Below, one piece after another: positions 12,854-34,850 of a stretch of DNA of 64,000 nucleotides (position 1 is its first letter; each line of letters opens with the position of its first letter). The translations under genes and the position numbers were made by a program. Under the pieces are notes generated by a model. It had not been told where the DNA came from. It searched no databases and was given only the letters and a program-made list of their open reading frames with translations. Origin of the DNA: Chara braunii. Its lineage: Eukaryota; Plantae; Charophyceae. The DNA is taken from NCBI GenBank assembly GCA_003427395.1, contig BFEA01000009.1, forward strand, positions 760,879 to 824,878, given 5' to 3'.

Positions 12854-13384
12854 GGTGTAAATGCTCTCACTGTTCCGTGAACCGCCGAGACGGACGCCGT
12901 TGCTTCGCTCCTTCGCCGCTCTAGCCGGGTGCGCCAACTATATATCCCACGGTCCCCTACGACATGACAGGTTCCCGCGGGGCATAAGCTTGCATCCCTA
13001 AGGGTCTGTCACCACCCTTAGGGGCATATCCCTACCGAGCTACTGATCCACGTGCGAAGGATTTTAAGTGCAATCGCAGAGGTAGATCAGCCGAGGGCGT
13101 TTGCTCGTCTCACTGCAGTATAGGAATTGTTTGACTAAACGCCGAATGAACCCGAGCGTCGTTCGTTCCCTAGGGCGCTGATCTCCCAAGTACGAAGCGT
13201 ACACCGATCGACTAGGACAGTCTCAACTAAGCGTGAAAACAATTCTTAGTCCCTCACAATCAAACAACAAAATCCTCATTCCTTAAAACAAAATCACACA
13301 ATCCAAAACGTTGACTTGATGAGCTGGTCTATCAAAATGTCTCCTTTTCAACCTGTATGACTGAAAAAAAAAAAATATTGTCAT

Positions 13385-13705
13385 TCCAAGATTATTAATT
13401 TAAAGAAATAAACTAAGAATGATTTTCTTATCATGACTACTGAAACTTGTCATGAATAGCTCATGTAAATAAATATCACTGGCACCATGCAGATCAACAA
13501 GTGATCTGGTTTCTGGTCGATGTTTGAACTCCCTGTTCGACCTCGCTTCCGTACCATATTCAATTATTTTGGAATAGTCGCTCCAAGATTATTAATTGAA
13601 GAACAAACTAGGATTGATCTTCCTATGAAAATATCTGCAAGTAAATACCGCTGCTACCATGCAGATCAACAAGTGATCTGGTTCCTGGTCGANGTTTGAA
13701 CTCTC
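13385..13705. repeat. Internal duplication in LTR A (also ~28540-28860)
   Basis: ccaagattattaatt at ~13386 and ~13582; accatgcagatcaacaagtgatctggtt at ~13484 and ~13656. Confidence 0.7.
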
Positions 13706-14158
13706 GGTTCAACCATACCTTAGTGCTATATGTGACTACTTGGAGGAGCGAGTGACAACTTTTCTTGGTCGCTCTGTCCTCCTGGACAATAATTACTTTT
13801 TTTGTTCCACGAATGATGGAATATCCATCTCTAACGCCAAGTTACNCAACGAATAAATATTTCANCTTCCGNTGCTTTGCTTGACAACTTTTTCAGACGT
13901 TCGNTTTTCACTTTATCCACCTTATTTTTATGCGAACGATTACCCCTTAATGCATAAGCATGATAGTNAAATCATNGGGGTAATCCGAATACTATCCATC
14001 CGGCNGTCCTAACTNCATAAAGTGTTTTGTTTTTATTTTNAGATTACCTCGTGAAACCATAAGTTATATGGTTTCCTCAACGGGACTGAGTCCATGCGAA
14101 GTGTTTTATGAAATCTGAGTAAGATTTCAGAAGACGATGTCTAATCCTGGTAAATCTC

Positions 14159-14692
14159 TCACCCGCCGCGCACCTGTGCCTCCAATAAATCCAAACGTGC
14201 CAGCTTGTCATCGTCGAAAATCAAAGTAGACCTTCGTCCACATCGCATGACTCTAACAATCCGAGTATTATAGAAGGAGGCCATCCGAGAGGCTAGTCTC
14301 CAAACTATAACTCGGAAAGGTCGACTAAGTCCAAACAGGTGTCGAGTCTCTGTGTCCCGGATCCAGACGACGCCGAAACGCCTACCGGACAAAGTAATCT
14401 TGATACTCACAATGACTCGAGAGAGGCATTGGAGGTTACTCGCGTGGTGGAAATACAAAGTATATCCGTAAAGCTCGTCGGGAGTCCGAGCCGTGTTGGC
14501 TCGAAAATCCGCGCGAGTATTAGGGAAAAATCCCTCGCCATTTTGAAGCAGTCCAATGAAGTCGAACTAGTCGATAGGAGATTCATCTCAAATTCGTAAA
14601 AGTCGCGCCGCACTCCTGAGGAAATCATACTCGTGTGTATCACGAACCAGCAGATACCTCAGGATTGTCAGGTCTCGTCGTGCTCCAGGCAT
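14159..14692 (-). pseudogene. LTR-borne ORF2, 177 codons plus terminal stop, two internal stops, unknown function
   Basis: actaat...gcag|ATG at 14692 is in frame with ORF 14159-14458: MPGARRDLTILRYLLVRDTHEYDFLRSAARLLRI*DESPID*FDFIGLLQ...AQVRGG. The stops (TGA, TAG) are each one transition from a sense codon. Confidence 0.55.
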
Positions 14693-14715
14693 CTGCATAT
14701 CAGAACGTATCCAAA

Positions 14716-15228
14716 TTAGTCGCGTAAAAACTCCTCGAGTTCTTCAGCTTCATCTTCCAAATCATCATCATATAATGCTTCGGCTCCTATAATAACGAAT
14801 CTATTGACACGTATCCGCTCTGCGTAGTATATGCCAAAGAATGGGCCTTGTCGCTCATTTAGCCAAAGCACGTAACGAACGAACGGCAACCTTATTTCCG
14901 GGATCTCGACCACCTGTAGATTCAGTTCGTATGACTGCAATATCACCAAGTTCATATTAACGAAGTGACGTTCGGGCAATGGCGGTGCGAACTCGTAGTG
15001 AATAACATCCAAGCCGGCCGGTCTCCTGAAAATAAGTCGTCTGGGGGGTCTCTGCGCACTGCCATCCCAAAACCGCGGAACGTCCTCCTCTGAGTACAGC
15101 TCTGACGGGTTATAAACAAGTCGGCCTATCCTTTCTACTCTTTCTCCGTTACGTCTTTGGATTTCAACCCTTTCGGCCGCCGAATTGCGGTCGTAGAAAA
15201 GGAACAAGTCCATGGATCCCGCAACCAT
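14716..15228 (-). CDS. LTR-borne ORF1, 170-aa hypothetical protein with acidic C-terminus
   Basis: Uninterrupted ORF with protein-like composition, ending DDDLEDEAEELEEFLRD. The ATG is directly preceded by tcttcctttttctttcag. Confidence 0.65.
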   Translation of the reverse strand: MVAGSMDLFLFYDRNSAAERVEIQRRNGERVERIGRLVYNPSELYSEEDVPRFWDGSAQRPPRRLIFRRPAGLDVIHYEFAPPLPERHFVNMNLVILQSYELNLQVVEIPEIRLPFVRYVLWLNERQGPFFGIYYAERIRVNRFVIIGAEALYDDDLEDEAEELEEFLRD

Positions 15229-16349
15229 CTGAAAGAAAAAGGAAGACGAATGTGATCAAGTTAAAACTAAGTATCACTTAAAATATTTATCTTCCTTCTG
15301 GCCCGTGATTCTTATGGTACGACCAACCTCGTCAGGGGTATCTAAATGTACTCCGTTCAGCTAATGGAACATGAGTCGGGCTGCTTGTGGCGCCAACTCT
15401 TCATACGTTAGTGGTACCTAGGATGACCACTTAAACAGGATTGCTAAGGCAGTTTTCCTTTTTCGCAAGGCGTCAAGAAATAAATTTTCTTCCGTGTGGA
15501 TGCCTTCTCCATTACCCTAAGAGGTGGTCTGGGATACTCCTTCTCCTCGCCCGAGTACAAAACTCGGATCTTAGAAGTCAGACCGTCTCCACCGAATCGG
15601 CATAGTACCCCCCCCCAAAGCGGTCCACTCTAAGTCGATAACAGGGCCGGCCCCTAAGGCAACGAACCCCCGCCCCAAATGCCTCCTAGAAAAAGGGAAA
15701 ACACCTACATAGCATCAAGTAAAGTTTTGCCGCCTAGCGTGAAAGTAAACTCAGACGAAAAAAGAGGAATCGTAGAAAGATAGAATCATTCAGACTGACA
15801 GACATAGATGGAAGAGGGTTATTCGGGAAAGAATGGGTAACCTCATGAATAAGTCTAAACCAAGTTTAATTTCTCTTCCTTATGCTCGCTTCGTTTCTCG
15901 TTGTCTTTTTTTTCTTTTATTTATACATAGAATACAAGCACGGAGGTGAAAAAGTCAACCATTATTTCACCGTCATCACCCTCATCCAATTCAGTCCACA
16001 TGCTGTACCTGCAGTCAAAACCCAACGACACACAGACCACCATGCATTCCTTTACCATTGTAAGACTCCCAGTCATACATGCAAGAACACACATCCTCTT
16101 CCCTTTTTCAATGAACATTCAATAAAACAGNTCAAAGCAAGTGTGGGTTCACTCATGTGTGAAGGGAACTGAGTCAATTTAACTGANTGATTGACCTTGA
16201 GTGAAATTGAATAAATGGCCNACTCAAGAAGACCGTATAAATCACACTCCAGAGAATACAATCGTCACAATGAGTCGCCTGCAAAACAATCCACACCACT
16301 CCTTAGAACGATCACTTGTTGCGACACCCTGCGTCGCCGCCGTAAAATT

Positions 16350-33511: not shown

Positions 33512-33554
33512 CCTAGACGCCCTTAGCGCCATGTTCAGGCGCAGAAGTAGTTGT

Positions 33555-33613
33555 CCAGATTGTCGAGGCTCAGCCTCCTGATGAGTCGGTGAGATTCCGA
33601 CGAAACAGCCTGG
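33555..33613 (+). ncRNA. Type III hammerhead ribozyme, second copy
   Basis: Identical to 18400-18458; predicted cleavage after C33564. Confidence 0.88.
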
Positions 33614-33970
33614 CACAGAGCTACCCGTTCGTTCAAAACGAACGGGTGCCCAACAAAACTTAAAAAAAAAGAAAAAGAAGACAAAAAGAAAAAAAACAAA
33701 AGAAGAAATCCAAACCAAATCTAAGAAAAAAAAATCTAAGATCAAAAGAAAGAAAAAAAATCAATAAAAAAAAATATCCTACCTGAGACGAAACGGGGCC
33801 CGTTCCGTTGAAAACGGGGGCCCTCTGAAACTGCTGAGGACTACAGTCCTCAGCCTTTGTTTCCTGGTCGCCATCTGGCGCTGCCATGTTAAGGTCGTTG
33901 GCTTATGCCAACGGCAAGGGTCATATTGAAATACAGACCCGAGTTCGATTCCCTACGGGGAATCGAAAAG

Positions 33971-34030
33971 AAAATTAGGACCATTTCTCGATTTGTGTGT
34001 GTCATCCTTGCACAGGGTCCATGCCGATCT
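33971..34030 (-). ncRNA. U6: 3' half of U6 snRNA, second copy
   Basis: Identical to 18816-18875. Confidence 0.9.
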
Positions 34031-34111
34031 GCGCGCGGCCGATCTGGACCGCGCGATCTTCAGATCGGGCGGTCGAGGTAGACCGCGCTTCTAAAAAAAA
34101 CGGGCAGCTCC

Positions 34112-34203
34112 AAAAGGAGCTAGCCCGGCAGAACCACGAGTGAGATTCGATCCCCATATCAGCGGGTCGAGAGTTGTGTACCGGTACCTACTGGGCTAGC
34201 TCC
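34112..34203 (-). ncRNA. Putative Pol III small RNA, second copy
   Basis: Identical to 18957-19048. Confidence 0.5.
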
Positions 34204-34850
34204 TGTTCCATGCTGAACAGGAGCAGCTCTTCAATATGAAGAGCTTGCCCAGATACCTTCCCTGCCTGCGGCCTTTCAGGTGCCGGCTGCCTGTGGCCTA
34301 GCAGGCCTGCCCCGGTTGTGGCCTGTCGGCTGACCTGCCCGTGGCCTACCCTTACCGGTTAGCCGTGTGACCGCTTCTTGGTCGGCCATCGAACCGGGTA
34401 AGCCTTGGCATTTGCCTATCGGCCCCCAGGCTCAAAGTCAGACCCCGCGGTCCTAGAAAAAAAACGCAAGCTTCCTACGCCTCCTGCGCCGTGGCCCTAT
34501 ACCCTGGCGCAACTCTCTTTTAAGCCCATTTAGGCCCTGAATCGCGCGACTTAACAGCCGCGCGACGTTATCATAGGTAGGATAGGTTTAATTTTAACAT
34601 TTTTTTATCCCCGCATTCCTACGGCTTTCACAAAAGCGTAACCTTTGTCGTTCACACCCGATACCCCCGGATGTCACATGCGTCCGGACTAAAGTCCGAA
34701 AACTCTTAGTTTCTCAGTCATAGGTCAGGTCTGAATAAACATTTGGCAAACATCATTCTCATCAAGTCCTTCAATTCAACGCAAGAGTCGAACAACGTCC
34801 GACGTTCAAAAACACCGGCAAATACCCTTGTGAGGGTTTTTACCCCGACA

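Follow-up and report, generated by a model that had tools for sequence, protein, structure and literature searches.

An antisense type III hammerhead motif in the long terminal repeats of a decayed Ty3/Gypsy element from Chara braunii

The closest described systems are the plant LTR (long terminal repeat) retrozymes, which carry a type III hammerhead in the LTR, are linked to the Ty3/Gypsy machinery and are highly structured. They are non-coding, with ~350-bp LTRs, a hammerhead in the transcribed polarity, circles of 600-1000 nt and a tRNA-Met primer site (PMC4918200, PMC7761336; these and the other comparisons below draw on excerpts of the papers cited). The similarity between retrozymes and Ty3/Gypsy elements is, in the excerpt of Cervera 2016, confined to two short boxes. 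The TRIMp3 elements Cassandra, Helenus and Ajax contain small-RNA-derived or RNA polymerase III (Pol III) promoter-like sequence in their LTRs, for which insertion of a short interspersed element (SINE) into the LTR was proposed as the origin; they are <1 kb and non-autonomous, with 5S or tRNA sequence, and small nuclear RNA (snRNA) is not mentioned in that paper (PMC10886601). In the alga Chara braunii, the Penelope-like elements (PLEs) Chlamys-2/3/5 and PLE-X1 have terminal-repeat hammerheads, a (CT)n preference in two families and a stem I similar to that described below; they encode a Penelope reverse transcriptase (RT), and have pseudo-LTRs and minimal type I sense hammerheads with other stems (PMC8557442). 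Ogre/Tat elements possess LTRs of 1.9-6.5 kb, a total length of 16-25 kb and extra open reading frames (ORFs) of unknown function (PMC6431247), and Ylt1-like clades were described in fungi (PMC2864245). Here we analyse an element of the same alga, located within a window of 64,000 nucleotides (contig BFEA01000009.1, positions 760,879 to 824,878; all coordinates below are those of the window), whose 6.8-kb LTRs contain a type III hammerhead motif antisense to gag-pol.

The hammerhead and its strand

The element, a decayed minus-strand Ty3/Gypsy copy, has direct repeats at 12871-19695 and 28027-34850, both with TG..CA termini, that bracket 8.3 kb. The domains gag, protease, RT, RNase H and integrase follow one another on that strand in the Gypsy order, and the proposal of an earlier note, made from the sequence alone, that this is a Ty3/Gypsy element with 6.8-kb LTRs is borne out by these repeats and domains. 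The LTR contains the following features:

28027..34850, minus strand: 5' LTR, 6,824 bases, TG..CA; its core 28547-34451 equals that of the other LTR, Ns included
12871..19695, minus strand: 3' LTR, 6,825 bases
18402..18456, plus strand: type III hammerhead, antisense to the element (RF00008, 49.1 bits); second copy 33557-33611
18301..18353, plus strand: (TC)26 microsatellite, 50 bases before the hammerhead
18497-18620: A-rich tract downstream of the hammerhead
18815..18877, minus strand: 3' half of U6 snRNA (RF00026) with a T-run end; second copy 33970-34032
18957..19050, minus strand: candidate Pol III unit, A box 19043, B box 18997, its two ends forming a long stem, then TTTT; second copy 34198/34152
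16997..19687, unoriented: hairpin-dense zone, inferred U3
17213..17218, minus strand: TATA-like site, candidate LTR promoter
16404..16861, unoriented: 53-bp minisatellite, ~8 copies

The hammerhead had been called canonical, and comparison with Rfam agrees: the Hammerhead_3 score of 49.1 bits (E 9e-8) exceeds the gathering score, 48.5, and the matches at E<=1 in the window number four in total, two to Hammerhead_3 and two to U6. The motif has the complete CUGAUGA/GAAA core, a GUC site that conforms to the UH rule, and three stems, of which stem III is open; cleavage is predicted after 18409. Loop 1 (UCA) and loop 2 (UGAGAU(U)) are similar to the UAA/UGAGAU loops of the peach latent mosaic viroid hammerhead (PMC2632901, in excerpt), and the tertiary loops look preserved. 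Folded alone, the motif gives z -1.2, and its support rests on the covariance model. It lies on the plus strand, and gag-pol, the U6 half and the A/B-box unit are all on the minus strand. Being antisense to gag-pol, it cannot cut the genomic RNA of the element, only antisense RNA. What stands out at the locus is that a gag-pol LTR holds a type III hammerhead in antisense orientation.

Our reading, held tentatively at a probability of about 0.45, is that an antisense type III hammerhead in U3 is kept at the family level and is predicted likely to cut antisense transcripts. Three observations underlie this rating: an intact core with intact loops, a context retained in diverged relatives, and an island of read depth over the motif that is as deep as the LTR ends. 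Since the TATA-like site lies at 17218, we infer that the hairpin-dense zone is U3, and hence 3' untranslated region (UTR) of the genomic RNA. Six 500-bp bins (16871-19870) hold 32 hairpins, compared with 6.0 from shuffles, and the remaining 25 bins of the element hold 19; the excess spans the 2.7 kb between the TATA site and the end of the LTR, and confirms the zone that the earlier note had put at ~2.2 kb. On the usual LTR replication pathway, cleavage by a hammerhead lying sense in U3 would remove R and the poly(A) tail, located some 1.2 kb further downstream, and strand transfer would be blocked; a coding element could therefore tolerate only the antisense orientation. Antisense RNA might arise divergently from the LTR promoter or by read-through from a neighbour; it would be cut after 18409, giving a shorter RNA able to pair with genomic RNA.

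Relatives and assembly of the LTR

Sequencing runs were placed on 16700-28847 in 30 bins (X1, DNA; X6, X7 and X8, poly(A) RNA; X5, presumed RNA), and 5 of the 24 runs listed contain part of the zone. X1 has depth in 30/30 bins, both here and in the region of the LTR-internal ORFs. Summed per bin, its depth (which does not give copy numbers) is 363-919 over pol away from the insertion described below and 4,361-8,066 in the bins at the TATA site and preceding it. For the bin with the hammerhead the sum is 63,212, and for that with U6 and the A/B unit 32,501; at the two termini of the LTR it is 14,167 (start) and 81,176 (U5 end). These islands, of similar order along the LTR, show sequence that is conserved and present in far more sequences than this subfamily. 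The hammerhead core is much commoner than pol in genomic DNA and also occurs, with diverged flanks, in poly(A) RNA, where the reads placed (521 in X6, 787 in X8) fall mostly at the core, and pol, apart from the insertion, has no or almost no depth. The loose ends after 18451, after 18453 and before 18415 match the LTR's own flanks in diverged form (by eye, agreement 0.5-0.9), with homologous flanks in 2/3 downstream loose-end groups and 1 upstream group. On a 569-nt contig with a depth of 125 (X5 record 10), the hammerhead is followed by hairpins and the A/B unit, as in the window, and neighbouring parts are colinear on X5 record 11 and X1 record 2. Among 15 of 165 joints, one connects the hammerhead with the U6 end, and several others bring together the U6 end, the hairpins and the A/B unit, colinear with other spacers; the short sides of the joints measure 21-25 letters, which makes them weak. 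The order of modules expected from the earlier note is thus kept in relatives for the hammerhead, hairpins and A/B unit, and fails for the U6 piece, most of which is missing in X5 record 10.

Several results weigh against an antisense cutter kept by the family. Nearly all the poly(A) reads (519/521 in X6, 780/787 in X8) fit only in part, their flanks failing 90%, and they therefore come from other copies, LTR or otherwise. First mates are equal on both strands in the RNA libraries, so transcription of the hammerhead strand is not thereby indicated, and the hammerhead reads may be sense 3' UTRs. Wobble pairs in the hairpin zone have no strand preference (5 vs 4). No pile-up of read ends at the cleavage site is listed, a comparison of little power. 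The (TC)26 before and the A-rich tract after the hammerhead are arranged as for a retroposed insert, and the LTR core, as discussed below, is a collapsed assembly sequence.

The arrangement of the flanks leads to an alternative that we consider possible, if doubtful: a separate high-copy, non-autonomous retroposon, retrozyme-like or SINE-like, carrying a hammerhead was inserted antisense into an ancestral LTR and has since been a passenger. With about the same doubt, the U6 half and the A/B unit would be further nested retrocopies and the LTR a layered sink. Consistent with this, the hammerhead bin stands far above the adjoining bins in X1 (652 to 8,066), the poly(A) hammerhead reads nearly all have other flanks, Chara Chlamys-5 prefers (CT)n, and antisense inserts are the kind that an LTR can tolerate; the U6 half adds its A-tailed copies and its absence from one relative. 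However, no clear target duplication surrounds the hammerhead among 20 of 25 direct-repeat families, the hairpin excess extends over the entire 2.7 kb and not over a single insert, and the depth of the hammerhead bin is matched at the ends of the LTR itself.

Hammerheads were also sought outside the alga. A metagenome scan with the hammerhead core gave 9 loci, none of which resembles the LTR beyond the ribozyme, and viral contigs with RT gave 5 pattern matches and 0 relatives. Four of the metagenome contigs (L002, L006, L007 and L009) are 2.2-2.5 kb long with 123-base terminal repeats (circular units of ~2.1 and 2.35 kb), and each has a type III hammerhead of 44-46 bits with the same stem II as the LTR motif; they are possibly viroid-like or RNA-virus-like circles. 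On a further contig of 2 kb (L001), up to three hammerhead-like motifs lie on one strand, at 579-632, 1143-1201 and 1500-1563.

The assembly itself has to be considered. The cores of the two LTRs (13392-19296 and 28547-34451) do not differ in any letter over 5,905 bases, 18 single Ns included, and the outer parts differ at 24 positions in 520 bases and 19 in 399 (4.6%; Kimura two-parameter distance, K2P, 0.046). As ambiguity letters cannot be shared in the cell, the identical Ns mean that one collapsed sequence was placed twice. The core is therefore a family-level sequence, and parts found in "both" LTRs, which the earlier note had placed in each LTR, amount to one observation. It could be that the collapsed core merges parts of different subfamilies that were never together in one copy. 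The contrast between core and ends and the missing target-site duplication of the element are consistent with such a composite, as are several listed places at which nearly all the X1 contig depth has another letter than the window, and a stretch spanned by no contig. Nevertheless, we regard it as very unlikely, since hammerhead, hairpins and A/B unit stand together on X5 record 10, X5 record 11 and X1 record 2 are colinear over neighbouring parts, and X1 covers 30/30 bins in both regions. Apart from the LTRs, 95 identical bases of the gag-pol spacer occur at 25890-25984 and, beside an N gap, at 57159-57253, a probable spill-over of the assembly.

Accessory sequences of the LTR

The U6 3' half claimed earlier has an E-value of 5e-7 in Rfam, and its score of 41.5 bits is under the gathering score of 44. 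It spans model positions 46-105 of 105, the first 45 being missing, so that it is not a full-length gene, and its sequence deviates immediately ahead of the internal stem-loop; at its 5' boundary it is paired with upstream sequence in a stem. In X1, 57 contigs have an A-tail behind the 3' end of U6, like U6 retrocopies. Such retrocopies are reportedly found in mammals. X5 record 10 skips 18746-18859, i.e., most of the U6 half, yet keeps the neighbouring modules. The U6 half is likely a captured fragment and a dispensable passenger; U6 is among the RNAs packaged by retroviruses (PMC4931115, in excerpt).

The A/B-box hairpin unit of the earlier note was found as one pair per LTR, spaced 46 as in tRNA and, besides its twin, the only such pair in the window; the boxes were searched with our own pattern, built on a consensus, which also finds a pair in 23/500 shuffled LTRs. 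The unit folds better than shuffles (z -4.8), with paired ends before TTTT, and may yield a short Pol III RNA. For tRNA or 5S homology, ARAGORN gave 0 genes and none appeared in 22 Rfam matches at E<=10. A second B box, near 18787 on the plus strand, for which the same pattern found no A-box partner, is presumably like a tRNA T-arm. In the hairpin zone, the 8-mer AAAACGGG occurs five times within 2.7 kb, at 17592, 17734, 18656 and 18942 on the plus strand and once on the other, mostly in hairpin loops or arms, with 0 occurrences in 41 kb of other sequence counted; it is possibly a protein-binding site.

The TATA box, minisatellite and two orphan ORFs of the earlier note were all recovered (the TATA-like site at 17218, the minisatellite at 16404-16861, ORF1 and ORF2). 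The reading frames of the LTR and of the internal region are as follows:

14716..15228, minus strand: ORF1, 170 aa, orphan; ATG directly after a pyrimidine tract and AG
14159..14692, minus strand: ORF2, ~177 codons, interrupted here by two stops; ATG after AG
26490..27720, minus strand: gag in two frames, ATG after AG; Retrotrans_gag E 0.005, under the cut-off
25433..25776, minus strand: aspartyl protease, PF13975 E 0.004
21255..24599, minus strand: RT, RNase H and integrase; RVT_1 6.8e-11, RT_RNaseH 2e-20, Integrase_H2C2 5.8e-14, rve 0.0017
25001..25432, unoriented: ~430-base insertion of another repeat in pol, N gap inside; other copies have the joint 25000-25432 without the insert

Homologues of ORF1 number 0 among 167 candidates and 0 in 1.84 billion representatives; its best Atlas score of 0.82 (all <0.9) is an unconfirmed lead, and a structure model from the single sequence has a predicted local distance difference test (pLDDT) score of 41. 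ORF2 is 81% identical over 81 aa to the Chara protein P0015, which is open across both ORF2 stops, and one of these stops is absent from most family sequences placed. The P0015 gene model consists of 81 ORF2-like residues followed by an RFC1-like AAA lid, and it would be either mis-predicted or a real exonisation of the LTR ORF. The ATGs of ORF1, ORF2 and gag are each directly preceded by AG, which suggests alternative splicing from a single leader; the "acceptor-led ORFs" of the earlier note stand in this respect, and no splice joint supports them, since none is among the joints listed from the RNA runs in the ORF region or the hairpin zone, a search of low power. Poly(A) reads of related copies cover the ORF region in 30/30 bins in X7 (349 reads) and 7/30 bins in X8 (30 reads). 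The synonymous share of family variants (5/11 in ORF1, 4/11 in ORF2, 6/21 in gag-pol; best 40 of 424 and best 40 of 286 variant rows, with 5/26 internal rows outside the frames tested) does not discriminate, and the indel rows (0/12 in ORF1, 2/12 in ORF2) cluster and are hence weak. Upstream of ORF1, an island at 15511-15720 is ~10x deeper than its neighbours in X1 and is read in poly(A) RNA; it has no Rfam match, and neither its fold (15500-15720, z -0.55) nor that of the U5 end (z -0.84) is better than shuffles.

The earlier note combined these parts into an integrated module, in which the ribozyme, U6 half and Pol III unit jointly control the cleavage, splicing or silencing of element RNA. 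All the parts do lie within 650 bases, the U6 half and the A/B unit have the same orientation as gag-pol, the AG ahead of three ORFs implies a choice in splicing, and a stem incorporates the 5' boundary of U6. However, the hammerhead is antisense; the U6 piece is without positions 1-45, altered before the internal stem-loop, absent in a relative and found elsewhere with A-tails; the A/B unit and the U6 half are separated by T-runs, and a Pol III transcript would hence likely end without reaching U6; and no joint was seen in RNA, at low power. A single module that processes element RNA is therefore the least probable of the explanations, and we would give it little credence. The antisense cutter comes first, with the inserted passenger close behind, and the assembly composite and the integrated module are less likely. 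A wider version of the antisense-cutter reading, in which a large, once-autonomous charophyte Gypsy lineage keeps a working antisense U3 hammerhead in many diverged subfamilies, destroys its own antisense RNA by self-cleavage and thereby escapes RNA silencing, expresses from that LTR a short Pol III transcript as well as, through splicing, two accessory proteins, and has LTRs of a kind from which plant retrozymes could have come, appears unlikely to us.

Coding region, surroundings and comparison with known systems

The frames of the element are disrupted by stops, frameshifts and the ~430-base insertion. The inserted sequence is a short GTAC-rich repeat with three copies in the window (9966-10779, 25001-25432 and 37104-37556), with A/T tracts and assembly gaps, and deep in DNA. 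The closest PDB match of the RT is Ty3 RT (4e-12). Among its 14 matches, nine are Chara braunii proteins (best 87%), four are metagenome proteins (36-65%) and one is fungal (32%), the best named match outside Chara; land-plant Gypsy elements are not among the 14. Its motifs would suggest a Ylt1-like affinity. The 5-base flanks of the element match at 2/5, so a target-site duplication was not found, for which age, recombination or a mis-join may be the cause. No primer-binding site with a TGG-type start was found, as judged without host tRNA sequences, and a 9-base complement lies 290 bases inside U5; the polypurine tract is weak. The primer-site region 28010-28026 has a 9-mer in common with a hairpin just before the 3' LTR (19714-19733) and can pair with U5 at 28311-28319. 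Self-priming of the Tf1 type was considered and rejected, as the primer-site complement was not found near the TATA site.

Both flanks of the element consist of a 142-bp satellite with a ~393-bp higher-order unit (6014-12860, 34851-37117 and 55189-56700), which hosts Gypsy copies. A second decayed Gypsy element, of plus-strand orientation, occupies 40211-55173; its repeats lie at 40211-41168 and 54101-55173, its protease at 50170 and its RNase H at 51904, and neither hammerhead nor U6 was found in it with Rfam at E<=1. An ORF at 2323-2892 on the minus strand encodes DUF7869 (E 3e-28).

In the literature searched, without subscription papers or Repbase, we found no report of a hammerhead in a gag-pol-coding LTR element or of U6 in an LTR, and the core of the LTR hammerhead matched none of the published Chara PLE motifs (PMC8557442 and supplement, in excerpt). 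From the Penelope-like elements of the same alga, the element described here differs by its Gypsy pol and integrase and by a full type III, antisense ribozyme. In contrast to TRIMp3, it is coding, and has a TATA site, a U6 fragment and an A/B unit without recognisable tRNA homology. The extra ORFs of Ogre are placed in the internal region (PMC6431247, in excerpt), and those of the Chara element inside the LTR. Compared with retrozymes, it has gag-pol, a 6.8-kb LTR, an antisense hammerhead and 15,155 bases between the sites, and a tRNA-Met-type primer site was not found in it. Even as a passenger, the hammerhead would belong to an abundant, transcribed type III family in an alga, not met in the literature searched. 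If our preferred reading is true, then self-cleavage would have a new use, the cutting of antisense RNA, and the LTRs of retrozymes would have a testable origin in a coding Gypsy family bearing the complete type III ribozyme.

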